Origin: a virus
Length of the DNA: 42,920 bases
Direction: 5' to 3' (one strand)
IMG/VR virus record: IMGVR_UViG_3300045988_008560
Coordinates: 1 to 42,920 of that record
Below are positions 6,453 to 30,412 of this stretch, one piece after another; positions within the stretch are counted from its first letter, which is position 1, and every line of letters begins with the position of its first letter. Both the position numbers and the translations under genes were made by a program. Below the pieces are notes generated by a model. The model saw nothing but the letters and a program-made list of their open reading frames with translations. It did no database searches and was not told where the DNA came from.

Positions 6453-7249
6453 GTTGCTTCTCCCATTCGCATTTGCTCAAATTCCGGCTTTTCAAACAGT
6501 GGTGCAAGCATTTCCCCCTTTGCCGCTTTGTAAAACGCCTTATCAACCTCAAAGCCGTAGGCATTGCGCCCTAACTCATATGCGGCCCGGAGCGTAGACC
6601 CGCTGCCAGCGCAAGGGTCAATCACCACATCGCCGGGATCCGTAAATACGGAAATCAGCTTTTTCAAGACACCAATCGGCTTCTGCGTTGGGTGTACCTT
6701 CGGATACTCGCTGCGCTTGTCACGCTCCCACGAGATCCAGTCAAATACCATGTGCCGCTCTCCGTCTGCCCCCACGTTGCGGAATTTCGGCAACTTGTCC
6801 CGGTAGAGGACAACGGCAAACTCCGTCGCGCCGACAATTTTCATGTTGGCCTTCAGCACTTGCGCCGAATAGTTTTTTACGAAAAACAAGGGGTAAGACT
6901 TCATAAACCCGTATTGCTTTCCGTACTCGATCACCGTCTGCATCTGCTCAAAGGCGCAGAATACGATCATGGCCGGTGCCTGCCCCTTTTCCTTCGGCTC
7001 CTTCCGCAGCATCCGGTTGCAGAAGTGCATATACTCCGCAATGCGAAAATTCCCGTCCGTGTGAAAAAAGCTCTGCTTCGCCAGCTTGCTTTCTCCGTTC
7101 TTGTTGTCACCGTCCTTGTACCACATAGGGTTAGAAGCGTATGCATCCGCACCGATGTTGTACGGAATATCCGCGATCACAAGTTGTGCTTTCGGTACAT
7201 TGTATCGCTTAAAATTTTGAAAATTATCGTGGTAAAGTTCACACTTCAT
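6449..7249 (-). CDS. N6-adenine/N4-cytosine DNA methyltransferase, beta-class motif order
   Basis: ORF trimmed to MKCELYHD (7249); catalytic VIADIPYN (DPPY variant) precedes HPTQKP and AdoMet motif VVIDPCAGSGST. Confidence 0.8.
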   Translation of the reverse strand: MKCELYHDNFQNFKRYNVPKAQLVIADIPYNIGADAYASNPMWYKDGDNKNGESKLAKQSFFHTDGNFRIAEYMHFCNRMLRKEPKEKGQAPAMIVFCAFEQMQTVIEYGKQYGFMKSYPLFFVKNYSAQVLKANMKIVGATEFAVVLYRDKLPKFRNVGADGERHMVFDWISWERDKRSEYPKVHPTQKPIGVLKKLISVFTDPGDVVIDPCAGSGSTLRAAYELGRNAYGFEVDKAFYKAAKGEMLAPLFEKPEFEQMRMGEAT

Positions 7250-7506: not shown

Positions 7507-8246
7507 CACACATACCCCCAAGCGTCCTCGCATTTGTTGCCGGGGCCTTTTGCCCCCTTACGGCCACCGCGATCCTGTTCTTTGGCAAGCCAGCGAGTAA
7601 TGAATCCGCGCACACCACGCGCCGTTTTCCGCTTCGCCGGGTTATTCAGGCACCATTCCCGCATCTCCCGCAACTGCTGTATCACGTCGACAGCAGGGTA
7701 CACGCCCGCCCATTCCTGGCATTGCTCCTGCGACACCGGATATTCAGTGCCGTCATTGAGGGGGATGGAAACCACCGGCGGGGATGCCGTTTTCGGCTCG
7801 CCGCCTACTTCTTCTGGATTCTGGATTCTGGATTCTGGATTCTGGATTGGATTACGGGCGCATTTGCTTTCACCTGCTTGCAATTGATTGCAATTGATTT
7901 CAGATGTAATCAATCCGTCAGCAGGTGCCGGGAATTTGCTTACTTTGTTCCTCACCGTCTGGTGCTCGCTCCAGTTTGGAAAACATAGGTACGGTTCTCC
8001 GTCAACTTCATAGAGGATCACAGAGCCTATGGTCGCCAATTCTGCAAGCGTCTTACTGATCGTTCCCTCAGTTACACCTTTTCTGCGGGGGAATACAAAG
8101 CCTTTGAGCAATTCCGGGTCTGCGCTGCCGCGCCCATAATCATCAACGTAAGTAATCAGATATGCCCACAATCGGAATTGGAAGTCCGACATCGCATTGA
8201 TGCTTTTGCTTGTCCGAATGCTATCCTTGATGATTCTGTTCGGCAT
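7506..8246 (-). CDS. putative replication initiator / replisome organizer
   Basis: Sits directly downstream of ssb in the early operon; contains internal DNA iterons; C-terminal NNPAKRKTARGVRGFITRWLAKEQ resembles DnaD-like phage initiators. Confidence 0.55.
   Translation of the reverse strand: MPNRIIKDSIRTSKSINAMSDFQFRLWAYLITYVDDYGRGSADPELLKGFVFPRRKGVTEGTISKTLAELATIGSVILYEVDGEPYLCFPNWSEHQTVRNKVSKFPAPADGLITSEINCNQLQAGESKCARNPIQNPESRIQNPEEVGGEPKTASPPVVSIPLNDGTEYPVSQEQCQEWAGVYPAVDVIQQLREMREWCLNNPAKRKTARGVRGFITRWLAKEQDRGGRKGAKGPGNKCEDAWGYV
7812..7846. repeat. (TTCTGGA)x5 perfect tandem heptamer inside the replication gene
   Basis: cttctggattctggattctggattctggattctggattgg read directly. Confidence 0.9.
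7880..7915. repeat. gcaattgatt x2 tandem repeat plus inverted copy (aatcaat)
   Basis: gcaattgattgcaattgatttcagatgtaatcaatc; each unit contains the palindrome caattg. Confidence 0.8.
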
Positions 8247-15265: not shown

Positions 15266-16297
15266 ATGAAAATACCGAAGGCGGTAAAGCTGCCGTCCGG
15301 CTCATGGTATATCAACATCATGGTAGACGGAAAGCGTCTCTCCATCACGGCTCCGACCAAGCGAGAAGCTGAAAATGAAGCTGCCGCCATCAAGTCTGGT
15401 GCCAAAGCCGCCAAGATAAAAATAAGGTTCACCGTTGGAGAAGTAATCGATAGATACATCTCCAGCAAAGATACCGTTCTATCCCCTACTACGATCAATG
15501 GGTATAAAAAGCTCCGCAAATCCGTTTTCCAGGAAATCATGGATGATCCAGCGGATAGCATTTCGCAAGAGCGTGTACAACGGGCCGTCAATAAAATGGC
15601 TCGCTCCAAATCGCCTAAATACGTCCGCAATGCCTACGGGTTGTTCACCGCAGCAATGGCAGAATATTTCCCAGATCGGATGTTCCGCATTACGCTGCCA
15701 CAGAAGGAAGCTCCAAAAATCCAAATCCCTACCATGGACCAGATTCGGACACTGCATGAGGATTGCCGTGGAAAACAATTTGAGCTGCCGTTTCTGCTGG
15801 CCGTCTGGCTTGGCCTGAGAACATCGGAGATTCGCGGCCTGACATGGGATTGCATTGATGGGAATACGCTTATCATCAAGCAAGCACTCGTTGAAGGTGA
15901 AAACGGGCCTGAGTTAAAGCAACCGAAAACATACAGCGGAAACCGACGCTTGCAGGTCCCTCCGTACATAATGCACCTACTGGAGGAAACGCCGCGCACA
16001 GACGAATATATCGTGCACTACACCCGCAGCGCCATGTATAACCATTTAAGACGCGCTTGTATCCGCCATGATATCCCTCCATTCCGATTTCACGATCTGC
16101 GCCACGTCAACGCATCTGTAATGCTTGAACAGAACGTGCCAGACAAATACGCTATGGAGCGGATGGGACACGCCACAAACAATATGCTTAAAAACGTGTA
16201 TCAGCATACAATTAGCAAGAAATCAAAGCAGGTCGCAGATAACCTCGATCGCTATTTTGAAAAAGAATTACAGATAAAATTACAGATGAACAATTAA
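15266..16297 (+). CDS. int: tyrosine recombinase / phage integrase
   Basis: LGLRTSEIRGLTW (box I Arg) and RFHDLRHVNAS...MGHATNNMLKNVYQHT (HxxR..H..Y). Confidence 0.95.
   Translation: MKIPKAVKLPSGSWYINIMVDGKRLSITAPTKREAENEAAAIKSGAKAAKIKIRFTVGEVIDRYISSKDTVLSPTTINGYKKLRKSVFQEIMDDPADSISQERVQRAVNKMARSKSPKYVRNAYGLFTAAMAEYFPDRMFRITLPQKEAPKIQIPTMDQIRTLHEDCRGKQFELPFLLAVWLGLRTSEIRGLTWDCIDGNTLIIKQALVEGENGPELKQPKTYSGNRRLQVPPYIMHLLEETPRTDEYIVHYTRSAMYNHLRRACIRHDIPPFRFHDLRHVNASVMLEQNVPDKYAMERMGHATNNMLKNVYQHTISKKSKQVADNLDRYFEKELQIKLQMNN
16266..16290 (+). repeat. AATTACAGAT(A/G)AA direct repeats, left of attP core (inside the int 3' end)
   Basis: aattacagataaa + aaattacagatgaa; same motif recurs at 16475..16512. 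Confidence 0.6.
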
Positions 16298-16334: not shown

Positions 16335-16362
16335 GCGGGTTCGACTCCCGCCACTCGGACCA
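16335..16362 (+). other. attP core candidate: 3' end of a tRNA gene (T arm, acceptor 3' strand, CCA)
   Basis: GCGGG-TTCGACT-CCCGC-CACTCGG-A-CCA with no matching 5' half upstream; 38 nt after the integrase stop. Confidence 0.7.
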
Positions 16363-16517: not shown

Positions 16518-16550
16518 CGTCCCCCGCCTATACAGGCAGGGGACGTTTTT
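16518..16550. terminator. bidirectional terminator hairpin
   Basis: cgtcccccgcc-tataca-ggcaggggacg then ttttt on plus strand; begins right after the stop of 16549..16854 on minus strand. Confidence 0.65.
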
Positions 16551-16854
16551 AAAACGCTTCCAATTTCCGCATGACGCTATTATAAACCCGCTCGTTTACC
16601 ACTTTCAAGCTATCCATCAGCTCGTCCATGACTTCCCACGCACGGGCCGGGTCAACGTTAGACACCGCCCGGAGGAAATCGCTGTCAGGTGCGGGGGCCT
16701 CAGAATACGCCTCAACCATATGGCTTTCCCTTATCGGTTCCCGGTTCTGGTTTTGGATAATATACAGCGCCGCCAGCTTTTCATAGTTTGCCCAGCTGGA
16801 CTCCTCTGTTTCTAATCGGCTAATCCATAACGACAGTTCGCGTTCGTCGACCAT
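16549..16854 (-). CDS. hypothetical protein (accessory cassette gene 8)
   Basis: 101-aa acidic helical ORF, last gene before attP. Confidence 0.75.
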   Translation of the reverse strand: MVDERELSLWISRLETEESSWANYEKLAALYIIQNQNREPIRESHMVEAYSEAPAPDSDFLRAVSNVDPARAWEVMDELMDSLKVVNERVYNSVMRKLEAF

Positions 16855-16869
16855 GGGGGCATACCCCCT

Positions 16870-17253
16870 TTAGTCTCCAAGAGCATCCATGCAGCGGCGG
16901 ATTGCATCGCGGGCAGCGTCAGTATCAGCCTCCCGCATCATGTCCTCCAGTTGCATGCGCATCCGCTCCTGACTATTCCCACGGCTGTAGTGGCCCCGCA
17001 CATAATGGGTGCCGCGCCGCGCATAGGAATTCCCCCGGCCATAGGTGCCCCGGATGCTGGCGCCCCAGTCTCCATCACGGGAGTAGTCGCCGCCCTCAAA
17101 CATCTCAATTTTGTAGGTGTTTTTGATGGCACTGGTAATATCCCGGATGGCATCCAGATCAGCAGCATTTACGCCGCCCTTCTTAGCGGTTTCATCGTAG
17201 AGATCGTCCAATTCCTTGCACAGCATCTCCCGCAGATCATCATAATCTCGCAT
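16870..17253 (-). CDS. hypothetical protein with Arg/Gly/Tyr-rich centre (cassette gene 7)
   Basis: Trimmed to MRDYDDLREML...; GDYSRDGDWGASIRGTYGRGNSYARRGTHYVRGHYSRGNS. Confidence 0.75.
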   Translation of the reverse strand: MRDYDDLREMLCKELDDLYDETAKKGGVNAADLDAIRDITSAIKNTYKIEMFEGGDYSRDGDWGASIRGTYGRGNSYARRGTHYVRGHYSRGNSQERMRMQLEDMMREADTDAARDAIRRCMDALGD

Positions 17254-17266
17254 AGTCCGTCTCCTT

Positions 17267-17689
17267 TCACGACACACGGTCAACAGTCAGGTTGGAGTTG
17301 GCAAAGTTAATCGCCTGTGTGCTGGTATTTTCCATGGCCACCGTCAGGCAGCAGCCCCGAGGCACCTCCACAATGGCGCTGACAAAAATGTTAAAATAGT
17401 TCTCCACCGCCGCCGGGGTTACGGTAGCCGTGGCGCCGGTCAGCGGCTCGCCGTTGATAGCCAAAGCGGCGGTGATGGCCTCCACCGTGCCGCCGGTGGG
17501 AATGGCAATATTGCCGCCAAAAGCCACGCGGAAACGGGCCTTGCACTGGTTGGTCAGACCCCGCAGGGTAACGATGCCCGCGCCCTCACGGTGCACAATG
17601 CATGTCTTGCTGTTGACTGCTGTCTTGGTAAGTGGCACGTTTTGACCCGCTGCGACCTCAACAATGTTGGAGTTAGTATACTCAGCCAT
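17267..17689 (-). CDS. all-beta protein, possibly C1q/TNF-like (BclA C-terminal-domain-like) (cassette gene 6)
   Basis: 140 aa with alternating beta pattern ARFRVAFGGNIAIP...ALAINGEPLTGA...IFVSAIVEV...CLTVAMEN...NLTVDRV; fold assignment is my inference. Confidence 0.7.
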   Translation of the reverse strand: MAEYTNSNIVEVAAGQNVPLTKTAVNSKTCIVHREGAGIVTLRGLTNQCKARFRVAFGGNIAIPTGGTVEAITAALAINGEPLTGATATVTPAAVENYFNIFVSAIVEVPRGCCLTVAMENTSTQAINFANSNLTVDRVS

Positions 17690-17805
17690 AAAATCAATCC
17701 TTTCATATAACAGCGGCGGAGCTATTGCCCCGCCGCGTTGTTGTCAGTATCGGCATGGGGCCGATCATCCCGGTCATGCCGCCGGGAAGCTAAATTATGC
17801 AGTTG

Positions 17806-18537
17806 TCAGCAGCCGCAGCCACCGCAGCCGTTGTATGTGCCTGCTGCCCAGGGATTGCAGGACTGGTACGCCGGAATGGGCGTGGGCCGCAGCTGGGAGA
17901 TCAAGTAGTTGTTCTGTGCCGCCTGAGATGCGGCCAGCTTCAAACCCTGATTCTCGCTCTGGAGATCCTGCAACTTGCTCTGGGTCAGGAAATCGAGGAT
18001 TGCGCGGCTGTTGCTGTTGGCATTGTCGATGATATCCCGGGTGGCGTTCTGCACCGTGTTCCGGGTATCGCAAGCCTGAGCGGCCATGTCATAGCGCACG
18101 CCCTCGATGCTGCGCTGGGTGTTGCAGCAGCACTCAGCGGCCTGCATCTGCATGGCAGTCAACTGCTGCATGAGAGCCGCCTGCTGGTTGCTGCGGGAAA
18201 GCTCGGCCTGTGCAAAGCCGTTGGCCATCGCCATGTTGGTGCCGTTGACAAGCTGCGCCTGCTGGTAAAATCCGTCGCAAAGACCCTGATTTACACTGTC
18301 GATCTTGCGCTCGACATTGGCAAAGTCAGAGGTCAGCACATAGCCGTCGACCACGCCGCCGCCATTGCCGCCGTTGTTGCCCCAGCCGTTGCCGCCCCAG
18401 CCGCAAAAAACAAACAAAAACAGGATAATGATCCACCATGCACCGTCACCGCCCCAGCCAAAGCCGTTTCCGCTGCCGGAGGTGTTGGCGGGAGCCACAG
18501 GCATGGTCATCGTCGGCATACCGTCAGATAGAGACAT
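17806..18537 (-). CDS. membrane-anchored Gly-rich / coiled-coil / Cys-rich protein (cassette gene 5)
   Basis: SD AAAGGAGAG; GFGWGGDGAWWIIILFLFVFCGWGGNGWGNNGGNGGG, long Gln/Asn/Ala helix with CCC, C-terminal NGCGGCGC. Confidence 0.8.
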   Translation of the reverse strand: MSLSDGMPTMTMPVAPANTSGSGNGFGWGGDGAWWIIILFLFVFCGWGGNGWGNNGGNGGGVVDGYVLTSDFANVERKIDSVNQGLCDGFYQQAQLVNGTNMAMANGFAQAELSRSNQQAALMQQLTAMQMQAAECCCNTQRSIEGVRYDMAAQACDTRNTVQNATRDIIDNANSNSRAILDFLTQSKLQDLQSENQGLKLAASQAAQNNYLISQLRPTPIPAYQSCNPWAAGTYNGCGGCGC

Positions 18538-18588
18538 AATATCTCTCCTTTCAAAATTTTATCAATCAAATCGTGGCCACGATTTTGA

Positions 18589-18807
18589 TTACCGCAAAAA
18601 GCTCTCAAATTGCTTTGCCATTGCCTGCAGCTGGTTCAGCTGCTGCTGGCTCATTTTGCCGGATTGCAGCAGCTTTTCCACCTCCGCTTTTGGATCGCCC
18701 TGAAACGTGGCGCGGAACTGGTTAAATTGCTGCATGAGCCGCTGGAATTGGCCCATCGCCCCCGGCATCTGACCGCCGCCCATGGCCTTAAAAAACGGAT
18801 TAGCCAT
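18589..18807 (-). CDS. Gln-rich small protein (cassette gene 4)
   Basis: SD AAGGAGG 9 nt upstream; MANPFFKAMGGGQMPGAMGQFQRLMQQFNQF... Confidence 0.75.
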   Translation of the reverse strand: MANPFFKAMGGGQMPGAMGQFQRLMQQFNQFRATFQGDPKAEVEKLLQSGKMSQQQLNQLQAMAKQFESFLR

Positions 18808-19240
18808 CAGCGTCAGCCTCCTTTACTTTCTTCGCTGGCTTTTCTTTGCCCCGAATTTCGCCAACAATCGCTGCCAGACGGTCAAATTCCTCACGCGTGA
18901 CAAAATCCACGGCCTTAGCCTGCGGTGCGACAGGCGGCGTCTGAGAGCGCTCTACAAGGTCATAAATTTTAAGGGTCGGTTTGCCGCTGGCGTCCGCCTG
19001 CTTGAGATACACGGTGGGAGCCGTGCTGTCCCACAGCGCCACGGCGGCGTTGGGCGCAATCATCCAGTTTCGGGCCTCCTGTTCCCCACTGACCCACTGG
19101 ACACCGCTCTGCGCCATCGGATTCTGCGGGGGCTGCGGTGCCATCATTGGAGGCATCTGCTGTTGGCGGAGTTGTGCCAGGTTATCCGGCATAGGCTGTG
19201 CGTAATAGGGATTTTGCCAGCCGTAAGGTGTGTATGCCAT
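18800..19240 (-). CDS. Pro/Gln-rich protein (cassette gene 3)
   Basis: Trimmed to MAYTPYGWQNPYY (ATG 19240) 9 nt after AAGGAGG. Confidence 0.75.
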   Translation of the reverse strand: MAYTPYGWQNPYYAQPMPDNLAQLRQQQMPPMMAPQPPQNPMAQSGVQWVSGEQEARNWMIAPNAAVALWDSTAPTVYLKQADASGKPTLKIYDLVERSQTPPVAPQAKAVDFVTREEFDRLAAIVGEIRGKEKPAKKVKEADADG

Positions 19241-19241
19241 G

Positions 19242-19637
19242 TCAATCATCCTCCTTGACCCAGTAATATAAGATTGTCTCGTTGCTACTGTCCCAACTAT
19301 CCCAGATTACCCCGTCCTGTACGCAGACAACGTGGCCGGACAGCGCTAAAATATACGTCCCTGCCGGGTGTTGCTCCGCAAATTGGCCCACCGTGTAGCA
19401 ATCCGGACAGGTGTCCGGCACGATGTACCGCCGATATCCGATGCTGCGGAGATACCGCCCCCAACAGGCGTTAGCCGACGGCATATCACCATCCAGATAC
19501 CCTTGGATACAGAGCCGCAAATAAATTTCGCCCCAATCTTTGCCGGTAGCCTTGACGATTGCCCGCACGGTGCAATCCCCCACATTTTTCCCGCAGGGGT
19601 TGGGGTTGAAATACTTATACATATTCCCGGCGGTCAT
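19242..19637 (-). CDS. putative papain-fold Cys-His enzyme (cassette gene 2)
   Basis: NPCGKNVGDCTVRAI (Cys), LALSGHVVCV (His), WDSWD (Asp) in the order of a Cys-His-Asp triad; start 19637 or 19622. Confidence 0.6.
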   Translation of the reverse strand: MTAGNMYKYFNPNPCGKNVGDCTVRAIVKATGKDWGEIYLRLCIQGYLDGDMPSANACWGRYLRSIGYRRYIVPDTCPDCYTVGQFAEQHPAGTYILALSGHVVCVQDGVIWDSWDSSNETILYYWVKEDD

Positions 19638-19785
19638 CGTAGAGCAATTCGTTTGCTCTTACCAATTCAGCCAGCCCTTCTTCATCATCCTGTGCCGCGT
19701 ATTTATAACAAATATCTGTGGCGCTGGATTCGCTCATTCCGCACGCCCGCAGACGGTCAATGTATTCTCTACCAGTTGTAATCAC
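19615..19785 (-). CDS. small hypothetical protein (cassette gene 1)
   Basis: GTG start 6 nt after GGGAGGGG; VITTGREYIDRLRACGMSESS... Confidence 0.55.
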   Translation of the reverse strand: MITTGREYIDRLRACGMSESSATDICYKYAAQDDEEGLAELVRANELLYDDRREYV

Positions 19786-19867
19786 GGAGAACCCCTCCCT
19801 TGCTCTGCTTTCATGGTAAATCAAAAAACTCCATTCAAAGTGGCAGGAAAAGGGCAGAAAAGTGCGC

Positions 19868-19898
19868 AAAAAAGACGCGGTTCAAAGTGAACCGCGTC
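19868..19898 (-). terminator. intrinsic terminator after the sigma-like gene
   Basis: Minus strand reads gacgcggttc-acttt-gaaccgcgtc-tttttt (10-bp perfect stem plus T6). Confidence 0.85.
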
Positions 19899-19900
19899 TC

Positions 19901-20143
19901 TCAACGTGTAGTATAGATTTCATCTTGCAATTTCTGGTAAGCAGAGCGCCGTAGTCGCTTCACGGTGTCCACGCTCACATAAAGCTGCTCCGCTACCTGT
20001 AGGCAACTCCGGCCGTGGACGTCCACTGCCAGCACCGCCGTCTCCTCGTCAGAAGGCAGCCCGACCCGCCGGACGGCCTCCTCCGCTCTGGTGGGGGCCA
20101 TTGATGACAACAGCGCCCGGATCGCCTTGTGTTGAGTATCCAT
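19901..20143 (-). CDS. sigma-70 region-4-like / late transcription regulator
   Basis: HGRSCLQVAEQLYVSVDTVKRLRRSAYQKL is a region-4 type HTH; start uncertain (20143 or 20173), the only strong SD serves an out-of-frame ATGATG at 20195. Confidence 0.6.
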   Translation of the reverse strand: MDTQHKAIRALLSSMAPTRAEEAVRRVGLPSDEETAVLAVDVHGRSCLQVAEQLYVSVDTVKRLRRSAYQKLQDEIYTTR

Positions 20144-20213: not shown

Positions 20214-20759
20214 TTAAATCAACGCCAGCAGCTTTTTAAGCTGCGCCTCGGTCAGCTTTGTCCCGCCCAGCTTGATGGCTGCCGGGAACTCGTATGTCTT
20301 GTCCACCCCATTGATCTTGATGCCACTCACGTCATCCTGCAACGGATAGCCCCCATACAGTTTTACCTTGTACAGGACAAAAGTCGGATACTTGACGGCG
20401 TTGTCGCGATAGTCCGGGATGTTGTAGATCGTGATCCGCAGCCGGTCAAAGTAAGATGCTCCGGCATAGAGGGAGTACGGGATCGCCGGATGGTAGATGA
20501 TATCATGACCCGGCCACCCCAGACTGTTATAGCTATTTCCCGGCGTCTCGTACTGCGTCATCCACGCCTGCGTTGACTGCTTCCGTTTCTCGTACTTGAT
20601 GTGGTATCGTCCGCCTTGCCCGGATGCGTACATATACAGCAGGTTGATGTACACATAAGATACCGGGGTCATCGTCATGCGGAAATAGATGGGGTTGCTG
20701 GTGTCGTCTGCCGGGTCCACAAATTTGGAGATCGCGAGTTGGCCTTGATAGGTGCCGCC
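20214..20759 (-). CDS. C-terminal (putative receptor/carbohydrate-binding) part of the collagen-like fibre, downstream of an in-frame TGA
   Basis: Same frame as 20760..21488; 13 sense codons between the TGA and the GTG at 20720 that the ORF track uses; no SD in front of that GTG. Confidence 0.6.
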   Translation of the reverse strand, partial: GGTYQGQLAISKFVDPADDTSNPIYFRMTMTPVSYVYINLLYMYASGQGGRYHIKYEKRKQSTQAWMTQYETPGNSYNSLGWPGHDIIYHPAIPYSLYAGASYFDRLRITIYNIPDYRDNAVKYPTFVLYKVKLYGGYPLQDDVSGIKINGVDKTYEFPAAIKLGGTKLTEAQLKKLLALI

Positions 20760-21488
20760 TCAAAGGGTGGCGTGGTCGTTATCGCTGACCTCAAACGGCT
20801 CCCACGTCTCGCCCAAGTCCTTGCTGATCTCATACTGCACGTTTGCCTTGGGCAGAAAATCAGACTTACAGCCAAACTCAGGAGCCAATGCCGCCAGCTC
20901 AAAGAGTGACGGTGTGCCAAGGTTGCTGTAAAATTGGTTGTATACCGGGGAGATCATCCGCCCGTTGGCGTCGCTGGTGGCCTTGGTAGCATTGCTGATC
21001 TTTTGCCCCGGGAACTGATTCAGCACGTCCGCCACAAAGGCGCTTCGCTCCTCAGCGGTGTAGTAGTCCACGCCTGCCTCCGGCGTGTGCCCCGGCGCTC
21101 CCTGCGGGCCAGTTGCACCTTGCGGCCCCTGTTCGCCCTGTGGGCCTTGGGGGCCTGCTGGACCGGTCTCGCCCGTTGGCCCCTGCGCGCCTTGCGGGCC
21201 GGTATCACCGGTGTCTCCCTTCGGCCCCTGCGGGCCGGTAGGTCCTGCGGGTCCTTGGGGGCCTGTCGCGCCGTCAAACTCTCCGGCATCCGCTCGGCGA
21301 CGGATGTCTGCGGCAGTCTCACTGGCATACTGTGCTGCCTGGTTTGCCGCTGCCGTGGCCTTCTCTACTGCCGCAATGTCGGCATCCTGGCCCCGGAGGG
21401 TGGCCCCTTGAGCAGCCAGCCCCACCGGAGTGGGGCTATCCGCCGATAGTGCTGCCACAGTAGGATACTGGATGTGCAGCTCAAGCAT
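20760..21488 (-). CDS. collagen-like (G-X-Y repeat) fibre protein, N-terminal part
   Basis: [61 protein letters not shown]. Confidence 0.85.
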
Positions 21489-21804
21489 CGCCTAACACCT
21501 CCTGCCGGGTGAAGAGCGTGGGCATCATGTAGATGCGCCCGATCTGCACGTCCGGCATGTAGTCGCTGCCGTTGAGCTTGACCCGTGCGTCCAGCTGGAT
21601 TTCGGCGTTGGGGTCAAAGGCAAACGTCTGTTCCGGCGTCCATGTGATATACACGATATTTCCTTTTAAAGTGGCTTCATCCGATGGATACGCCACCTTG
21701 CGGACCACCTCCCCCTGCTGGAATTTGAGCTGGATGCTCTCCACCAGCCCGGGGTCTATCCCGCTGACTCTGATGGGCAGCAGGCAGTTGTTTCCTTGCT
21801 TCAT
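21481..21804 (-). CDS. hypothetical protein preceding the collagen-like fibre
   Basis: ORF 21481..22035 trimmed to [15 protein letters not shown] (21804), just after the endolysin stop. Confidence 0.7.
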
Positions 21805-21817
21805 GCCGCTCCTCCTC

Positions 21818-22882
21818 TCACCCGTTCCAGTCGGCCTTAGTCTCCCGGACGTCGATGTGGGTAAAACTCTTGTAGACGCCCACCCCGCCCCAATCGGGCA
21901 TAAGCGTCCTTGCAAACGCCGCCACAGCCTCCGGCGTCTGCCCCTTGACCACAATATCCGCCGCCGTGCCGTAGCAGTGCTGGCTGTGTGCCGCGCCGCC
22001 CTCTTTGACGTTGTACTGCGGCGTCCGATACCCACTGTTAATGGCCACAGCCGCGCCGAAGCGACTTCGTATGCTCTGCAAAACCATCACCAGCCGGGGG
22101 GCTACCAGCACGGTGTCGGAGCCGTCTTTGCAGGCAAATTCTTCCACTGTAAAGTTTGTGGACAGCTTCTTGCCGCCGTCCTTCGCCTTACTGTAGGCAT
22201 TGATCTCTACGCTCATAGGTTTTTCTCCTTCCGACTCGAATGCGTCGCCGCTCTTGTACTTCCACATAAGGAAAAAGGGAATGATCCGCCCGTCACCGGT
22301 GAAGCCATTGCCGTCGCTGTCCATAAAGCAGGTAGACCCGCCGCCGTCCATCATAATGGCATTGTCCCAACCAGAACTATACAGTAGGTCCCGCAGCTGT
22401 TCCGGTTTCCGGCGGTCCCGGCTGACGTAATAGGCAAAGCGCCCGTCTTTCGTCCCGATGGCCGTCCTGGCTGCGGAATATCCCATATCGCTTCCGTAAT
22501 TCATGGGGCTAATCTTCTTTCCGGCAATAATGGCGTGGACACACTCCATGTAGTTAGCATCGCTGTTGGGCACCGTGCGCACCCCAAAATCCTCCGGCGT
22601 GTTCCAGCTGATGGCCCACGCCCGGTAATTCGGAGCCTTCCGTACCTCGCCGTCCGCCTTTAGATGACAGGCGGGCCGTAGTGCCTTTGCCTTGCGCAAA
22701 GGATACCCCTTTTTCTTGGCCTGCTTTTCCCACAGGAAGATGGCGGCGTTGCAAATGCAGTCCCCGCCCGCCTCCGCCAGCATCTTCTTCAGATTGGTCG
22801 TGGTGGAGTGCAGGCGCTTGGTATTGAAGTAAATCTTAATCCACTGTAGGTCGGAGAGCGGGACAGTGCCCGCCCTGGTCAT
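21818..22882 (-). CDS. two-domain endolysin: phosphodiester-glycosidase (NAGPA-like) plus peptidase M15
   Basis: ARTAIGTKDGRFAYYV...NAIMMDGGGST (NAGPA-like) and SGYRTPQYN...HSQHCYGTAADI...THIDVR (M15 zinc site). Confidence 0.8.
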   Translation of the reverse strand: MTRAGTVPLSDLQWIKIYFNTKRLHSTTTNLKKMLAEAGGDCICNAAIFLWEKQAKKKGYPLRKAKALRPACHLKADGEVRKAPNYRAWAISWNTPEDFGVRTVPNSDANYMECVHAIIAGKKISPMNYGSDMGYSAARTAIGTKDGRFAYYVSRDRRKPEQLRDLLYSSGWDNAIMMDGGGSTCFMDSDGNGFTGDGRIIPFFLMWKYKSGDAFESEGEKPMSVEINAYSKAKDGGKKLSTNFTVEEFACKDGSDTVLVAPRLVMVLQSIRSRFGAAVAINSGYRTPQYNVKEGGAAHSQHCYGTAADIVVKGQTPEAVAAFARTLMPDWGGVGVYKSFTHIDVRETKADWNG

Positions 22883-23067
22883 TCCTTGTCCTCCCGGACC
22901 CGCTGGGTGCCAAAATAGAAGGCAATGACCGTGGTAAAGATAGTCAGGAACTCCGTCCCGGAAATGCTGCCCCGCAGCGCCAGCACCGTAAATACAACCG
23001 TCAGAACGATTGTCACGATGCTCTTGACCGTCAGCAGGTTCCCAAGCCTCTTTTTCAATGTCTCCAT
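22879..23067 (-). CDS. holin
   Basis: 62 aa, two TM helices (IVTIVLTVVFTVLAL, FLTIFTTVIAFYFG), charged C-terminus, ATGA-coupled to endolysin. Confidence 0.8.
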   Translation of the reverse strand: METLKKRLGNLLTVKSIVTIVLTVVFTVLALRGSISGTEFLTIFTTVIAFYFGTQRVREDKE

Positions 23068-24052: not shown

Positions 24053-25432
24053 TTATGTGTCTGGCTTGGTGTACCAAATCTGTGCATTTGCCGTCCGGTC
24101 TGAAAGGTCTTTAGGAGTGTTGAAGATAATCTGTGTGGTAGAGGCGTAGACCGTGCAATAATCGACATCACTATACCAATACGGTAGACTGTCCTTATAC
24201 CCAGCAGTGCAGTTAGCCGCACAGCGCAGCATGTATTCCACAGTAGCACCGTGATTTACAGTTTTGCGTGTGGCGTTTGGCAGAGCGCCACAGTCAACCA
24301 GTTTTGTATACACCGGCTTGCCCAGATACCGCTCCGTGGTGCGGTACTCGACGCCAAGGTCCATCGGAACTTTTACAAACTCCCATGCGCCCCACGTCTC
24401 TGAAAGCGCGTAACGTGTTCGCATCCAGTAGCGTGTATCTGTACTACTTGGGAAAAAGAATTGTGTATGGCATCTGTCATTACAGATATGAAGCACAGCA
24501 CCACTTTGTCCGTATGGATAGTTGCCGATTGTCTCGTCCGGATTGTAGTAAAAGTAGATTCCGTTCTTATCAATTGCATCTAATACGGCCCGCGATGCAA
24601 TGTATTTCCCAGTATTTTCTCCTAACCCGTACCCGCCGGGGGCAGCGTTGATATTCCCCCTCGCCTGGGTTTTCTGTGCGTCCGTCAGGCTCTGCGCCGC
24701 GTCATAGCGGACCGCGCCTTGTACGGTGTTCGCCCCGATGTTCGCCCGGGCCTGCGCTTTCTGCTCGTCGGTGAGGCTCTGCGCCGCGTCGTAGCGGACA
24801 AAGTTGCTGGAACCGCCCACGGGGCCGGGCGGGCCTTGCTTCCCCTCAGGTCCCTGTTTTCCCTCGGGGCCTTGAATACCCTGCTTCCCCTCCGGGCCTT
24901 GAAGATTGCCGTTGCCCACCCACTTGCCGTGGACGGAATCCCAGATGTAGATGTTGTACGGAGGCGCAGTGCCCACGCCGTACACGTCACCGGCCTTGGG
25001 ATTTGGGACGGCTGCCTTGAGGGCGTCCAGCGTATCAAAGTAGCCAAGAATGGCGAAGCTGGAACCGGCCTCGCCGGGATCGCCCTTGACGCCATTTTTG
25101 CCGGGAGGGCCAATGGGGCCTTTGATGGACGTTAGCGTGGTCAACGTGAAGGCATACACCCAGTTGGCCGTGCCCTTGAGGTACACCTTTCCGTAGTCCG
25201 CGGAGGACGTGCTGTCCGGCAGGATCAGGACGAACTGGCCGCGTTGGACGTCAGTGCCGGTGAAGTCCTGGTTCATCTCGGCCACGCTCTTGTACTCTTT
25301 TGTGATGCCAACCGGCACACCGGCGGACGCCAGCCGCGCATCGATCTCCTCGCCGGAGTAGGCGGATGTGTAATAGTCTTGCAGCTTGGAGAATATCTCC
25401 TCCAAAACTGCGACTCTCTGTTCAATCGTCAT
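24053..25432 (-). CDS. tail fibre with short collagen-like segments and 29-aa repeats
   Basis: ATG 25432 7 nt after GAGGTG; GPIGPPGKNGVKGDPGEAG, GPEGKQGIQGPEGKQGPEGKQGPPGP; VRYDAAQSLTD(E/A)QK repeated (DNA repeat at 24684 and 24771, 87-bp spacing). Confidence 0.85.
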   Translation of the reverse strand: MTIEQRVAVLEEIFSKLQDYYTSAYSGEEIDARLASAGVPVGITKEYKSVAEMNQDFTGTDVQRGQFVLILPDSTSSADYGKVYLKGTANWVYAFTLTTLTSIKGPIGPPGKNGVKGDPGEAGSSFAILGYFDTLDALKAAVPNPKAGDVYGVGTAPPYNIYIWDSVHGKWVGNGNLQGPEGKQGIQGPEGKQGPEGKQGPPGPVGGSSNFVRYDAAQSLTDEQKAQARANIGANTVQGAVRYDAAQSLTDAQKTQARGNINAAPGGYGLGENTGKYIASRAVLDAIDKNGIYFYYNPDETIGNYPYGQSGAVLHICNDRCHTQFFFPSSTDTRYWMRTRYALSETWGAWEFVKVPMDLGVEYRTTERYLGKPVYTKLVDCGALPNATRKTVNHGATVEYMLRCAANCTAGYKDSLPYWYSDVDYCTVYASTTQIIFNTPKDLSDRTANAQIWYTKPDT

Positions 25433-25442
25433 TGGAATCACC

Positions 25443-27991: not shown

Positions 27992-30412
27992 TTAGGTCAC
28001 TTTAATGCCGACGCGCTGCGTCTGGTCCTTGTTCAGCTTGAAGATAATGCGGCCCAATTCCTGTTCGCCGATCTTAAGGATCGCCGTCTGATTGCCACCG
28101 CCATACTGCGCCATGCCACGGGCCACCGCTGCCTCGATGGCAGATTCAGGAGCTTCAATGTTGTTCCCCTGCTTCTGGTCACCCAGTACTGCTAAAAACT
28201 CACGGTTCGGGGGAATCACTGCGCCGGTCGCCAAACGGGGAACGGATGCGGAATTGATGGCAGGTGTGCGGACGTTACCGCCGCCTGTAAATGCATTTTT
28301 GATGCTCCTCATTGCATTAGAAGCCCAAGATTTCACGCTTTCAAACGCTGACTTCAAACCATTGAGCAACCCATCAATAATGTTTTTGCCAAGGTCTTGC
28401 CAATATTCAACGGTGAAATACTTTGCAACACTTGATTGCCACCAAGATTTTATACTTTCCCACGTTTCGCTTAATTTTTCTTTCAGATAGTCCCAGTTGA
28501 GTGCCACCACAGAGCCAAGTCCAGCCGCTCCGGTTACGATCATTCTCAAACCGAGAGGGATACCAACTCCGGTAAACACAAGGATTACGCCCAAGACAAG
28601 CAAAGCGCCGCTTATCATAGCCGTGATTGCTCCGATGGGGCCACCCAGCAGATTTGTTATTGTATCCCAGTTTGCAATCACCGTTGCCGCAAGACCGGCA
28701 GCTCCGGCAATAAGTAATCCAATCCCGAGAGGAAGTGCGACTCCGCTGAATACTAAGACTGCGCCGATAACCAATAGTGCGCTGCTAACCACGGCAACAA
28801 CGCCGCCAATAGCGCCTTGCAGCAAGGTTTTAATTGTATCCCAATTCGCCGCAACCGTAGTCGCAAGCCCAATTGCGCCAGCAACCATTAGCCCTAAACC
28901 GAGCGGAACACTTGCACCGCTAAACGCCAAGATTGCACCCAAAACCAACAACGCGCCAGAAAGCAGGCCAACAACGGCTCCAACAGGGCCTTGCAGTGCT
29001 TCTTTAATTGTATCCCAATTTGCCGCAATGACCGTTGCCATCCCAGCAGCACCAACAGCCATTAGCGCAAGGCCAAGCGGGATGTTCGCGCCGGAAAACA
29101 GAATCACTGCACCGATTACGAGTAGCGCAAAACTCAAAAGAGCAACAACGGCTCCGATTGGGCCTTGCAGCATCTTTTTAACAGTATCCCAATTAGCTGC
29201 AACAACAGACGCAAGACCGATTGCTCCAGCAACCATCAACCCCAAGCCCAATGGTATGTTTGCTCCGGAGAACAAAATAATTGCACCGATGGCAAGCAAC
29301 GCAACCGACAGGATCGCAGTAACAACCCCGATTGGGCCTTGCAGCAGTTTTGCGATTGCCCCCCAGTCTGTCTTTACAGCACCCCAGATCGCCGCAGCGC
29401 CTAAAGCCATCAGGGTAATGCCACCCGGAATATTAGCGCCGGAAAACGTTAAAATTGCGCCGATGGCAAGCAAAAGCGCGCCGGTAAATAGTTCCATGAT
29501 TGCGCTAAGTTGATCGTTTATTCCCGTTGTAAAATCCGGCCCATTTTTGGCCTTGTCATCGCTGCCGGAAAGCTTATTGATTTCGTCAAAAGATGCTAAA
29601 GATTTACTTGTTTTCTTTGCAGCTTTCCCGGTTTTATCCATTGCACTGCTTTCTTCGTATAGATTCTCAGCAGCTTCCGCAGATGCTTCTGCCGTTGTCC
29701 CAAATATTTTTGAAACAAGGTCGGAAATTGTATTGACTATACGCGTCAGCACATTTACAAAAACAGTAAACGCAGGGATAAGCACATTCAAAATGGGCTG
29801 TGCTAAAACCAGCAAAGCACCTTTTAACTTTGAAACTGCCTTCATGGCCTTTTCGTTTGTTTGAATGGCACTCCACATATAATCTTTCAATGCGCGAAGT
29901 GCCTTTGTGATGAGCGTAAAAACAAAAACGCGTCGAGCAAGGCCCTTGATGCGGTTGGTGAATTTTTCCATCTGCTTTGCCGCTTCTTGGGCTGCGGGTG
30001 ACATCCCCTGAGTGTGTCTTTTGGCTCCCGCGAGCTGTGCAGAAAGTTCTCCCGCCCGGGTGCTCATTCGTTCAAGGCTTCGGGTATCTTTGGCGATGGA
30101 CGTATCCATTGCCTCAACCTTTTTTTGCACACCGTCCCATTCTTTTTGCAATGATGCTACTGTCTGCTCCTGCTCCTTTATAGAGCTGGATGTAAAAAAC
30201 GCATCGCCGCTTTTCATATAGTCCAGTTTCGCCTTTGCGTCATCGAGAACAGCCGCTAATTGTTTTGATTGCTCAACCAGTGGCATCTGCTCTTGCTTTT
30301 TATCGCTGATTTTTTCATTGAGCGAATCTATTTTTTTAGTAAGCCGGTTTAATTCAGTCTGCGCTTGTTTGTCATCAACATCCGCCTTGATAATAACGGA
30401 ACCATCCGCCAT
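27992..30412 (-). CDS. tape measure protein
   Basis: 806 aa, N-terminal coiled coil, central hydrophobic Gly/Ala-rich repeats, located between chaperone genes and tail-tip genes. Confidence 0.9.
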   Translation of the reverse strand: MADGSVIIKADVDDKQAQTELNRLTKKIDSLNEKISDKKQEQMPLVEQSKQLAAVLDDAKAKLDYMKSGDAFFTSSSIKEQEQTVASLQKEWDGVQKKVEAMDTSIAKDTRSLERMSTRAGELSAQLAGAKRHTQGMSPAAQEAAKQMEKFTNRIKGLARRVFVFTLITKALRALKDYMWSAIQTNEKAMKAVSKLKGALLVLAQPILNVLIPAFTVFVNVLTRIVNTISDLVSKIFGTTAEASAEAAENLYEESSAMDKTGKAAKKTSKSLASFDEINKLSGSDDKAKNGPDFTTGINDQLSAIMELFTGALLLAIGAILTFSGANIPGGITLMALGAAAIWGAVKTDWGAIAKLLQGPIGVVTAILSVALLAIGAIILFSGANIPLGLGLMVAGAIGLASVVAANWDTVKKMLQGPIGAVVALLSFALLVIGAVILFSGANIPLGLALMAVGAAGMATVIAANWDTIKEALQGPVGAVVGLLSGALLVLGAILAFSGASVPLGLGLMVAGAIGLATTVAANWDTIKTLLQGAIGGVVAVVSSALLVIGAVLVFSGVALPLGIGLLIAGAAGLAATVIANWDTITNLLGGPIGAITAMISGALLVLGVILVFTGVGIPLGLRMIVTGAAGLGSVVALNWDYLKEKLSETWESIKSWWQSSVAKYFTVEYWQDLGKNIIDGLLNGLKSAFESVKSWASNAMRSIKNAFTGGGNVRTPAINSASVPRLATGAVIPPNREFLAVLGDQKQGNNIEAPESAIEAAVARGMAQYGGGNQTAILKIGEQELGRIIFKLNKDQTQRVGIKVT
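28470..29500. repeat. about 5.5 tandem copies of a 174-bp (58-aa) unit inside the tape measure gene
   Basis: (T/A)GTATCCCA recurs at 28661, 28835, 29009, 29183 (period 174); protein unit GANIPLGLGLMVAGAIGLASVVAANWDTVKKMLQGPIGAVVALLSFALLVIGAVILFS. Confidence 0.9.

Follow-up and report, generated by a model that had tools for sequence, protein, structure and literature searches.

In the phages lambda and T4, the side fibres of the former and the Hoc and Soc proteins of the latter are dispensable in the laboratory. The eight-gene cassette described here matches no characterised system, and it lies in a stretch of 42,920 nucleotides of virus DNA (IMG/VR record IMGVR_UViG_3300045988_008560), the whole of which is referred to as the window. 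Neither a lysogenic-conversion island nor an essential virion module, the cassette is a separately regulated phage operon of the accessory kind. The original prediction had placed eight minus-strand ORFs at 16549-19785, all of which are present, and together they form a real, terminator-delimited and independent unit, the surroundings of which are as follows:

22879-23067: holin gene, upstream of the cassette
21818-22882: endolysin gene, upstream of the cassette
20760-21488: collagen-like fibre gene, upstream of the cassette
19901-20143, minus strand: g0, small helix-turn-helix (HTH) protein, 80 aa from Met11 (ORF open from 20173)
19868-19898, minus strand: intrinsic terminator downstream of g0, at the end of the late operon (-24.3 kcal/mol, z -5.76, then UUUUUU)
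19786-19867, minus strand: regulatory region with phased T-tracts, followed by a -10-like element (TACCAT) and by the ribosome-binding site of g1
19615-19785, minus strand: g1, GTG start, 56 aa, acidic helical
19242-19637, minus strand: g2, 131 aa, likely start 19622
18800-19249 (19240 for the 146-aa form), minus strand: g3
18589-18807, minus strand: g4, 72 aa
17806-18537, minus strand: g5, 243 aa
17713-17736, minus strand: GC-rich hairpin in the g5-g6 spacer (-23.3 kcal/mol, z -5.05)
17267-17689, minus strand: g6, 140 aa
16870-17253, minus strand: g7, 127 aa
16549-16854, minus strand: g8, 101 aa
16518-16545: bidirectional terminator hairpin at the cassette end (-25.0 kcal/mol on the minus and -24.8 kcal/mol on the plus strand, U-run on the plus strand)
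16335-16362, plus strand: stretch resembling a tRNA/tmRNA 3' end (T-arm, acceptor, CCA), as read from the sequence
15266-16297, plus strand: integrase gene, downstream of the cassette, adjoining the att-like site

Translational coupling had been supposed for all eight ORFs, and overlaps are indeed found for g1/g2, g2/g3 and g3/g4, whereas the remaining pairs are spaced (g6/g7 and g7/g8 by 13-15 nt, g4/g5 by 51 nt, g5/g6 by 116 nt). The hairpin in the last-mentioned spacer is a possible attenuator or mRNA-stability element. A clear Shine-Dalgarno sequence precedes each of the genes g3 to g8, and g1 has a GGGAGG-like site. The ORFs are more than chance, as each of them has homologues that keep the same order in other phage genomes or related prophages. 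GC and GC3 of the cassette equal those of the rest of the phage, including the late genes, and its composition is not foreign.

Both predicted terminators were found, the one after g0 as a strong hairpin with a U-run and the one at the cassette end as a hairpin that folds well on both strands. The last gene ahead of the former is g0, which had been taken for a region-4-like protein, and it does match Sigma70_r4_2 of Pfam (E 2e-5), with 24.6 bits slightly under the cut-off of 25.7, as well as GerE (1.4e-4), while its sigma-70 matches in NCBIfam are confined to the C-terminal region. With this sigma-70 region-4 or LuxR/GerE-like HTH, g0 is a candidate for the regulator of the cassette. Homologues of g0 precede the cassette in phage CPD1 and in six of the compared loci (L006, L007, L009, L011, L012, L013), in many other lineages g3 is preceded by small HTH genes of the same type that look unrelated to g0, and in low-GC lineages the region upstream of g3 contains a small HTH gene and a terminator as well as a promoter of the TATAAT type and a structured leader. 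In the window, three CTTTT tracts, phased by about 11 nt, lie at 19837-19874; the pattern CTTTTN{5,7}CTTTTN{5,8}CTTT is unique within the window (0.02 expected), and the same layout is found upstream of the cassette in L006, L007, L011 and L012.

The hallmark of the cassette is g5 (phrog_16490), for which at least 7998 homologues and 1744 clusters at 50 % identity were obtained. Its acidic tail, roughly 30 aa long, is followed by a hydrophobic anchor of 13-18 aa with Gly-rich stretches on either side, by a helical domain that is rich in Gln, Asn and Ala and contains a CCC cluster, and by a C-terminal tail of the type RPxPxPAY...GCGC, and the original description of the protein (Gly-rich, with a hydrophobic segment, CCC and a C-terminal CGGCGC) was correct. 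Among 109 representatives, the CCC cluster is found in 93 %, the N-tail contains on average 0.5 K/R versus 2.9 D/E, and the conserved hydrophobic segment lies near residue 31, with a Kyte-Doolittle mean of 2.0-3.3; hardly any charge is found on the C-terminal side of the anchor. By these features, g5 looks like a membrane protein. It had been proposed that the cassette encodes a secreted or membrane-associated assembly and no enzyme pathway, of which the membrane association fits best, whereas secretion is unlikely because g5 is the only cassette protein with a hydrophobic segment and signal peptides are absent from all of them, including the partners of g5.

The protein g6 (phrog_20016) is, according to its AF2 model (pLDDT 88.4), a standalone BclA-C or C1q/TNF-like beta-jellyroll, and presumably a trimer. 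In Foldseek searches against the PDB, the best neighbours were the C-terminal domain of F-BclA, ExsFA/BxpB and BclA (E 4e-7 to 3e-6, TM 0.67-0.76), followed by TNF-family ligands and phage fibre knobs. Cysteines are conserved at Cys30, Cys49 and Cys113-Cys114. Standalone phage proteins of 130-145 aa that resemble g6 are contained in BFVD, some of them titled 'BclA protein', and in a mixed collection of module proteins of other lineages, two gave a match to BclA_C of Pfam (E 6.4e-5).

The homologues of g2 (n=1478) begin at Met6 (19622), and the protein belongs to a family of unknown function (phrog_3754). Cys22, His102 and Asp113 are invariant across divergent members and follow the papain order, and in the AF2 model (pLDDT 91.5) the Cys is placed at a helix N-terminus with the His and Asp on adjacent strands. 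The claimed papain-fold enzyme is thus supported in its residues and their placement, but not by a significant PDB match, neither in fold nor in sequence. A small thiol peptidase with papain-like Cys-His-Asp arrangement is the putative assignment, and the triad would be equally compatible with a transglutaminase-like activity.

The other proteins have the compositions originally noted (Pro/Gln-rich, Gln-rich, all-beta for g6, an Arg/Gly/Tyr core, acidic helical). The family alignment of g3 (phrog_21718) displays a Tyr/Pro/Gln-rich N-terminus and a conserved central block, which may be a small beta domain, followed by a helix and by a tail rich in Lys and acidic residues. The Met/Gln-rich, helical g4 (phrog_22984) is possibly a chaperone or partner of g5, and g5 of the Bacteroides type has an N-terminal extension to which a g4-like motif shows weak alignment (hhalign 31-38 %, E 3-5e-4, as compared with 0 % for controls). 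An acidic helix, an Arg/Gly/Tyr-rich disordered core and a second helix make up g7 (weak match to phrog_28802), and g8 is acidic helical with homologues in close relatives and in CPD1 (CPD1_042). No family match was found for g1 in Pfam and PHROG-type profile searches, and its homologues occupy the same position in L006, L009, L011, L012 and L013. Seven of the eight proteins lack a family match in Pfam, NCBIfam, PADLOC or the PDB, and, as had been stated before for virion and lysis signatures, no virion, lysis or defence family is recognised in any of the eight by Pfam, NCBIfam, PHROG and PADLOC searches.

Judged by homology, the core genes are found again in a variety of phages of Clostridia from the gut, and they travel together. 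Among 45 loci of the Clostridia type, g5 occurs with g3 in 43, with a g4-like gene in 41, with a beta-rich protein in 42, with a g7-like gene in 40 and with a peptidase in 41 (32 of the Cys and 9 of the HExxH type). In 81 loci of the Bacteroides/crAss type, it is found with a beta-rich protein (79), an HExxH peptidase (71) and a protein that can be read as a beta-rich N-terminal half plus coiled coil (75). Common to both types is thus an architecture of anchor, small beta-rich protein, barrel-plus-helix protein and small peptidase of either the Cys or the HExxH kind, a relationship exists between the HExxH proteins of both types (hhalign 75-77 %), and the set is kept while the order changes, for example to g3-g4-g5-g6-g7-g2. 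An occurrence of the genes independently of each other was not seen in the loci compared. With g5 present in crAss-like phages, Bacteroides phage C3_41T2LP and gut viruses of methanogenic archaea (Methanomassiliicoccales), the module is not specific to a host envelope, and as crAss-like phages are a group not believed to form lysogens, it is also not specific to lysogeny.

The module was seen only within phages or prophages, where its place in the order of the phage genes is fixed. Holin and endolysin genes, or tail genes, immediately precede it in the window, Dulem virus 33, bajarodcaudo virus 5, L021, L037, L043, cr116_1 and vir215, and this is so regardless of a following integrase; by gene order, the module appears linked to the late/lysis region. 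In C3_41T2LP it follows replication genes and not lysis genes, and in CPD1 it lies between lysis and replication genes, so that its timing could be early and not late. Of the module region in vB_CpeS-17DYC, the phages phiCP39-O, 26F, 13O, 34O and 9O cover only 57-59 % (93-95 % identity), and a g5 match was obtained in none of the five. The genome of phiCP39-O lacks g3, g4, g5, the beta protein and the N-terminal part of g8, and a truncated g8 remnant marks the deletion. The module is dispensable in phages of this type. As it has been cleanly deleted in viable, near-identical C. perfringens phages, it is accessory.

What the cassette does can be explained in several ways, and a membrane-anchored, peptidase-matured assembly that acts around release or exclusion is the tentative choice, with chances well below even. 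The late operon would end with g0 and its terminator, and g0 or another factor would drive the phased-T-tract promoter. The core of the assembly would be g5, whose acidic N-tail and hydrophobic anchor, possibly shielded by g4 before insertion, would enter the cytoplasmic membrane, probably with the N-terminus out and the C-terminus in. The Gln/Asn-rich helical domain, CCC cluster and Pro/Tyr/Cys tail would then be cytoplasmic and oligomerise, and oligomerised g5 could recruit g6 together with g3, g7 and g8, which are of low complexity. One of the components may be matured or armed by a small peptidase, which is g2 in this phage and an HExxH mini-metallopeptidase in other lineages. The likely purpose would be a change of membrane or envelope near release, affecting timing or completeness of lysis, or the exclusion of superinfecting phages. 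Topology, contacts, expression timing, peptidase substrate and biological role are all inferred. Against this reading it counts that neither homology nor experiment ties the module to any membrane process, that the topology argument is based on charge bias only while one flank of the anchor is nearly uncharged, and that with the canonical holin and endolysin in the window an extra lysis function is a priori not needed. A TNF-like trimer with low-complexity adaptors has no known precedent in lysis or exclusion systems.

The original view was that of a lysogenic-conversion or defence locus, deduced from the att-proximal position. The position as such is correct, as the stretch at 16335-16362, which aligns with positions 347-363 of the Rfam tmRNA model (E 0.012) and contains no complete tRNA, is the probable attP core, and in an integrated prophage the cassette abuts host DNA. 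The deduction fails, however, because GC and GC3 are phage-like, the module holds the same position without an integrase, C. perfringens phages that were isolated from wastewater or described as lytic carry it with replication genes following, and PADLOC has no match among the eight proteins. Conversion by a prophage-expressed locus that modifies the host surface, which in spore-forming Clostridia could mean an exosporium- or coat-like layer of BxpB/ExsFA-like g6 and Cys-rich and Tyr/Gln-rich proteins under a GerE-like regulator, is thus improbable. It would agree with the exosporium proteins as best neighbours of g6, the GerE match of g0, the separate terminators and regulatory region and the moron-like presence or absence among near-identical phages, but g5 with an analogous partner set is also found in crAss-like and other phages of Bacteroides, which form no spores, and g5 even in archaeal viruses, and surface display without signal peptides would need lysis or an unknown route. 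Still less probable is an anti-phage defence or abortive infection system, in which the peptidase would arm g5 as an effector that disrupts membranes, analogous to a bacterial gasdermin plus protease, with the other proteins as sensors. The pairing of membrane protein and peptidase is kept despite non-orthologous replacement of the latter, and both the accessory distribution among close relatives and the location at the prophage end would suit defence, but an NTPase, a nuclease and a nucleotide-signalling component are all absent from the cassette, the module was found only at its fixed place in phages and prophages, and in crAss-like phages it lies within the late region.

The main rival to the membrane assembly is an optional virion appendage, which is rather unlikely. 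The shaft would be the g5 coiled coil and the distal knob the TNF-like g6, cross-linked by cysteines once the virion has left the anaerobic cell, with g3, g4, g7 and g8 as adaptors or assembly chaperones and the peptidase as maturation enzyme. The combination of a coiled coil and a TNF-like knob is classic for viral fibres, the fold of g6 also matches fibre and spike knobs of phages (phi812 central spike, cyanophage A4 tail complex, A-1(L) short fibre), g5, g6 and the alternative beta-rich proteins all have conserved cysteines, and the module directly follows tail-fibre genes in L043 and the collagen-like fibre gene in the window. Homologues of g5 have been labelled 'outer capsid protein/viral fiber' or 'spike protein' elsewhere, but these labels probably reflect only the coiled-coil and Gly-rich composition. 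Every g5 has the strongly hydrophobic segment, which is not known from soluble fibres, the genes lie outside the structural block, after a terminator, and have a regulator and a promoter of their own, none of the eight proteins of the window falls into the structural category of PHROG, and the neighbours of the module in cr116_1 match neither the modelled virion proteins of crAss001 nor other PDB chains. The core is conserved in phages isolated as lytic, as would be the case for virion parts, but no ordinary virion component was identified in it. If it is an appendage nevertheless, its dispensability would be like that of the lambda side fibres or of Hoc and Soc in T4.

The window is a temperate siphophage of the Clostridia type with a GC content of about 53 %, and relatives of it are contained in MAGs from Clostridia, among them Oscillospiraceae and Ruminococcus bicirculans.

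Landmark genes of the window phage
34480-35694, minus strand: major capsid protein, with terminase and portal before it in reading order
27992-30412, minus strand: tape measure, with the distal tail proteins next
24053-25441, minus strand: collagen-like fibre
22879-23067, minus strand: two-TM holin of 62 aa, overlapping the start of the endolysin gene
21818-22882, minus strand: endolysin
20760-21488, minus strand: second collagen-like protein, 242 aa
19901-20143, minus strand: g0, a small HTH gene
16549-19785, minus strand: the cassette, ORFs g1 (first) to g8 (last)
15266-16297, plus strand: integrase; the repressor-type genes are also on the plus strand

Past a 168-aa protein the order is g0, the cassette, an att-like site and then the plus-strand integrase and repressor-type genes. 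The stretch 20214-21804, originally described as a second fibre locus, comprises the collagen-like 242-aa protein, the 168-aa protein, which has no family match, and a probable 107-aa gene (21481-21804). As g0 follows directly after the endolysin in relatives such as locus L009, this stretch was apparently inserted between the two genes in the lineage of the window phage.

All eight ORFs of the cassette lie where the original prediction had placed them, and the hairpins on both sides are strong, i.e. the terminator after g0 (19868-19898; -24.3 kcal/mol, z -5.8, with a U-run) and the bidirectional hairpin after g8 (16518-16545). Translational coupling throughout, which had also been proposed, is too strong a claim: g1/g2, g2/g3 and g3/g4 overlap, but g4/g5 are separated by 51 nt and g5/g6 by 116 nt with a hairpin of -23 kcal/mol; the gaps g6/g7 and g7/g8 measure 13-15 nt. 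Each of g3 to g8 has a clear Shine-Dalgarno sequence and g1 a GGGAGG-like one. The GC-rich hairpin in the g5-g6 spacer (17713-17736, minus strand) has a weak U tract, and it may divide the cassette into the expression units g1-g5 and g6-g8. GC (0.52-0.60) and GC3 (0.63-0.77) of the cassette are inside the range of the late genes, except for g1 (56 aa; GC 0.47, GC3 0.44). Downstream, positions 16335-16362 resemble the 3' end of a tRNA or tmRNA (GGTTCGACTCCCGCCACTCGGACCA), as expected of an attP core; Rfam aligned this sequence to the tmRNA 3' end with an E of 0.012, and since ARAGORN found no complete tRNA or tmRNA gene there, the phage could integrate at either ssrA or a tRNA. In the integrated prophage L132, the cassette is the final phage block and is followed by host genes (FtsK, BacA and others).

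The genes of the cassette travel together. In Dulem virus 33 and eight related prophage contigs g2 to g8 are syntenic, usually with g0 upstream, and other lineages of Clostridia phages have retained the set in an altered order (g3, g4-like, g5, g6, g7, g2). The hallmark protein g5 has at least 7998 homologues in a 90 %-identity database, forming 1744 clusters at 50 % identity, and is among the commoner unexplained phage proteins sampled. Its partners were counted in 126 g5-carrying loci, 45 of the Clostridia type and 81 of the Bacteroides/crAss type.

Partners of g5 (Clostridia-type loci; Bacteroides/crAss-type loci)
g3: 43/45; 0/81
g4-like (Met/Gln-rich): 41/45; 0/81
Small beta-rich protein: 42/45 (32 of the g6 type, 10 of an unrelated Cys-rich type); 79/81 (two further families)
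g7-like: 40/45; 0/81
Protein with beta-rich N-terminal half and coiled coil (as read from sequence): 0/45; 75/81
Small peptidase: 41/45 (32 of the g2 type, 9 HExxH); 71/81 (HExxH)

The HExxH proteins of both types of loci are related to each other, and a fusion is hinted at by a weak alignment between g4-like proteins and the N-terminal extension of Bacteroides-type g5. Using hhalign, no relation was found between the g5 neighbours of cr116_1 and g1-g4, g6-g8 or g0, and phmmer with these neighbours against the PDB gave no crAss001 virion protein. Homology to g6 was not detected for the alternative beta-rich proteins (of the CPD1_040/bajarodcaudo, C3_41T2LP and cr116_1 types). On the whole, the module is one conserved architecture in which two components have been replaced non-orthologously.

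Most Clostridia-type genomes have the module directly after the endolysin and holin genes or after tail-fibre genes, and an integrase, early or convergent genes may come next. In cr116_1 it is found in the late region, between the lysis/small-terminase genes and a gene just upstream of the capsid gene that we read as scaffold, and in Bacteroides phage C3_41T2LP it is preceded by recombination genes. Moreover, g5 is encoded in Methanomassiliicoccales viruses, between tail/DGR genes and the integrase. Downstream of the archaeal g5 of one of these, vir215, the bacterial partner genes were not seen; two genes are present there (L129, 8289-10006), one for a 396-aa protein that, by eye, seems to carry a signal peptide, repeats in its interior and a membrane anchor at the C-terminus, the other for a 156-aa protein with several hydrophobic segments.

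Phages of C. perfringens exist with and without the module. CPD1, XP41-N3, vB_CpeS-17DYC, HMD-PC1, PMQ04 and CPQ4 carry it; phiCP39-O, 26F, 13O, 34O and 9O cover 57-59 % of the 10.4-kb module region of vB_CpeS-17DYC at 93-95 % identity, and a match to g5 is absent from all five. In phiCP39-O, no match was obtained with the CPD1 versions of g3, g4, g5, homing endonuclease and beta protein, nor with residues 1-39 of the CPD1 homologue of g8, and the g0-like, ferritin-like and Gam-like neighbours are retained with 97-99 % protein identity, together with a g8 remnant (93 %). Since the module-deleted phages were obtained as isolates and sequenced as such, infectious virions can be made without the module, and an essential virion module is excluded, because a viable close relative, phiCP39-O, has no g3, g4, g5 and beta protein. 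Pairs of phages with and without the module (CPD1 or vB_CpeS-17DYC versus phiCP39-O) occur naturally in a cultivable host. In C. perfringens phages the module has a ferritin-like gene at its distal end (CPD1_043, L002 7334-7861; phiCP39-O gp45, L131 6310-6837), which is kept even when the module is lost. In bajarodcaudo virus 5 (L004, 7167-8165) the ferritin-like protein constitutes the C-terminal half of a fusion with an Asn/Ser-rich region (hhalign 87.6 %).

The g5 protein starts with an acidic tail of about 30 aa, followed by a very hydrophobic segment of 13-18 aa with Gly/Trp/Asn-rich flanks, a Gln/Asn/Ala-rich helical region with a CCC cluster (found in 93 % of 109 representatives), and an RPxPxPAY...GCGC tail at the end. 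Elsewhere, the proteins are recorded as hypothetical, 'spike protein/glycoprotein' or 'outer capsid protein/viral fiber', and we regard the latter two labels as misleading. The best PDB matches of the g5 profile were HEF2 (E 9e-4) and many HA2 chains, with a Gly-rich hydrophobic peptide and the subsequent long helix aligned. Homology to these was rejected, as Gly runs and coiled-coil composition drive the score and an engineered Gly linker scores equally; the similar architecture probably explains the spike labels in crAss-like genomes. None of the lysis families in Pfam and PHROG matched g5, and a function as the phage's holin was set aside, as the canonical 62-aa two-TM holin is present. Also set aside were a double-glycine leader cut by g2, as the GG is not conserved, and a type IV pilin-like signal, as neither a charged leader nor a Glu at +5 was seen. 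Likely homing endonucleases (CxCDCGN...SCGC and IDRIDN..GY.P.NCRW motifs) are inserted immediately next to g5, in the g4-g5 or the g5-g6 interval (L001 5280-5831, minus strand, the only copy annotated 'endonuclease'; L002 5044-5667; L007 9118-9780; L011 8816-9655; L012 1757-2614, minus strand), and their independent insertion in several lineages suggests that g5 is a favoured homing target.

With respect to the partners, the predicted all-beta nature of g6 was borne out by a structure search: the confident AlphaFold (AF2) model (pLDDT 88.4) had 138 Foldseek matches in the PDB at E<=1e-3 and is a ten-strand jellyroll that can be superposed on the BclA C-terminal domain and TNF ligands. First in rank are the tip domain of F-BclA, ExsFA/BxpB and BclA (E 4e-7 to 3e-6, TM 0.67-0.76), then ligands of the TNF family, C1q-like proteins and some fibre knobs of phages, and many standalone phage proteins of 130-145 aa in BFVD share the fold. 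The g6 protein of the window did not match BclA_C (Pfam PF18573) at E<=0.1, and two proteins of a mixed set of 34 module proteins from other lineages, which the output leaves unnamed, did so with an E of 6.4e-5. As a bare 140-aa domain, g6 has no GXY repeats and no N-terminal collagen-like stalk as in BclA.

For g2, a papain-fold enzyme had been predicted, and the part of this that stands is the triad: 36 close and 15 divergent sequences all have Cys22, His102 and Asp113, and in the AF2 model (pLDDT 91.5) DSSP places the Cys at the N-terminus of a helix (22-31) and His and Asp at adjacent strands (103-107 and 110-113). The fold assignment as such was not substantiated, since the best Foldseek hit in the PDB had an E of 0.35 with nothing at E<=1e-3, the papain-fold proteins Josephin-2, Tae4 and TssM appeared only in the non-significant list (E about 0.8-1.1), and sequence and profile searches of Pfam, NCBIfam and PDB gave no significant match. 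From sequence and model, g2 is therefore treated as a putative enzyme working like a small thiol peptidase, with the family unassigned.

None of g1 to g8 has a match above threshold in Pfam, NCBIfam or PADLOC, in the latter not even at E<=0.1. Five of the eight belong to PHROGs of function unknown (3754, 21718, 22984, 16490 and 20016), and in the PDB, g2, g3, g5 and g6 found compositional matches at most, both by sequence and by profile. In the alignment, g3 starts with a Tyr/Pro/Gln-rich region; its centre is a conserved block, which we would take for a small beta domain, and a helix and a charged tail follow; g4 (72 aa) is Met/Gln-rich, g7 consists of a helix, an Arg/Gly/Tyr-rich core and another helix, and g1 and g8 are acidic helical proteins. 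Chance ORFs are excluded, and a microvirus-like H/G/J gene set was set aside, as there is neither a capsid nor a Rep gene.

The gene upstream of the cassette, g0, with 20143 as its likeliest start, had been regarded as sigma-like, and this applies in a restricted sense. It resembles a region-4-only or LuxR/GerE-type HTH protein slightly below the Pfam cut-offs (Sigma70_r4_2 with 24.6 bits at a cut-off of 25.7; also Sigma70_r4 and GerE), but it is not a complete sigma factor: the protein has 80-90 aa, the matches are confined to its C-terminal 45 residues, which align to the sigma models over their final 50 positions, and region 2 for core binding and -10 recognition is missing. In many lineages such a small region-4-type HTH gene lies upstream of g3, and after it there usually come a terminator, a promoter of the TATAAT type and a long hairpin with a U-run in the leader. 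In the HTH-g3 space of low-GC relatives (L021 9090-9260, L024 7029-7175, L030 4405-4585, L032 9121-9260, L040, L042, L046) this hairpin is long and conserved, with the SD-like GAAAGGAGA paired to a downstream CU-rich arm before the U-run, and by its sequence it looks like an attenuator or an antitermination target. In the window, three CTTTT tracts with a phasing of about 11 nt (19837-19874, minus strand) are found between the g0 terminator and g1, and at this place only (expected 0.02). Phased tracts also lie upstream of the cassette in relatives (L006 ~1990-2030, L007 ~6790-6840, L011 ~6725-6790, L012 ~385-420), followed by TACGAT or TACCAT, and they are a candidate for an activator site or a promoter with bent DNA, which g0 perhaps recognises. 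In L132, a gene for a 46-aa ribbon-helix-helix protein (Arc/RHH_5; 7650-7790) lies between endolysin and cassette, and the Pfam annotation shows no gene of the region-4 kind, which suggests that the regulator may be exchangeable.

In the literature searched, neither an account of the module nor virion proteomics of a carrier phage was found, and the module is filed under no known kind of system. The original prediction had favoured lysogenic conversion, defence or surface modification on account of the att-proximal position, and the cassette indeed lies between late genes and attachment site, has its own transcription signals and abuts host genes in L132. However, its base composition and codon usage are not distinct from the phage backbone, and the module is not confined to temperate phages; a lysogeny-restricted moron is excluded, and a spore-specific function was set aside, as g5 occurs with an analogous partner set in Bacteroides phages. 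With several observations running against it, lysogenic conversion or spore-surface modification is improbable. An anti-phage defence role would suit the same position, but here, too, several observations speak against it, a catalogued defence system is excluded, and we consider this role the most improbable one.

This leaves two readings to be weighed. The module could encode an optional virion fibre that is cross-linkable by cysteines and carries a TNF-like knob, in line with the fold of g6, and this is a doubtful yet serious explanation. Alternatively, it could form a membrane-anchored cytoplasmic assembly that is made from its own promoter, matured by the peptidase, and acts on the membrane around release or exclusion, for which we infer topology, protein contacts, timing and peptidase substrate. 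We tentatively prefer such a membrane assembly over the optional fibre, because the hydrophobic anchor is universal in g5, because g5 has a Met/Gln-rich partner that may be fused to it in other lineages, because the module is separately regulated behind a terminator and adjoins lysis genes, and because its hosts share only a cytoplasmic membrane. It is a bolder and unlikely proposal that the g5 module is a hitherto unrecognised, protease-armed, membrane-acting egress (or exclusion) system common to tailed viruses of Clostridia, Bacteroidota and methanogenic archaea. In such an egress system, the Met/Gln-rich partner and the Cys-rich C-terminal tail would keep g5 inactive until a dedicated mini-peptidase of the Cys or Zn type frees it very late in infection, the freed g5 would breach or remodel the cytoplasmic membrane, and the jellyroll and low-complexity proteins would set the timing. 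We know of no release mechanism that has been worked out for tailed archaeal viruses, and the egress reading, if true, would provide a candidate.

What is added here is the fixed partner set of g5 (jellyroll or other beta-rich protein, barrel-plus-helix protein, mini-peptidase) with its own regulator, its span across host phyla and even domains, and a loss that is not lethal to the phage, by which a list of hypothetical proteins has become a defined and testable system. If the module acts on the membrane at release or exclusion, this is a new step in phage biology, and as an optional fibre it would be a determinant of behaviour in the gut that is widespread; in both cases the annotation that att-proximal cassettes of this kind receive by default, lysogenic-conversion cargo, is corrected.

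In comparison with known systems, the cassette shares with phage morons and lysogenic-conversion cassettes between lysis genes and attR the prophage position, its own terminators and the presence or absence among close relatives. It differs from them in that it has no compositional signature, keeps the same place in the gene order of genomes in which no integrase follows, and consists of eight co-evolving genes without a recognisable host-directed function. The order and placement of Cys, His and Asp in g2 are those of papain-fold thiol enzymes (NlpC/P60, C39-like peptidases, transglutaminase-like proteins), but g2 is with about 125 aa smaller than known members and has no sequence match in Pfam or PDB. 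The fold of g6 is that of the BclA C-terminal domain, ExsFA/BxpB and F-BclA from the Bacillus exosporium and endospore appendages, and like ExsFA/BxpB, g6 is a standalone protein of about 140 aa that is made in the cytoplasm; the identity is just 11-15 %, however, the collagen stalk is absent, the gene is phage-encoded next to genes of a membrane protein and a peptidase, and an unrelated beta-rich protein replaces g6 in related modules. With class I viral fusion subunits (influenza HA2, HEF2), g5 has no more in common than an analogous architecture. The hosts of the module include monoderm bacteria, in which spanins are not needed. T4-type class III holin T and the i-spanin Rz, which we take to have a single N-terminal membrane anchor and a large helical or Cys-containing domain, resemble g5 with its short N-terminal tail, one hydrophobic segment and large C-terminal domain with conserved cysteines, and the g5 gene lies beside lysis genes; g5 differs from both in that it has no sequence or profile similarity to them, its predicted orientation is possibly opposite, and a separate canonical holin is encoded in the window.
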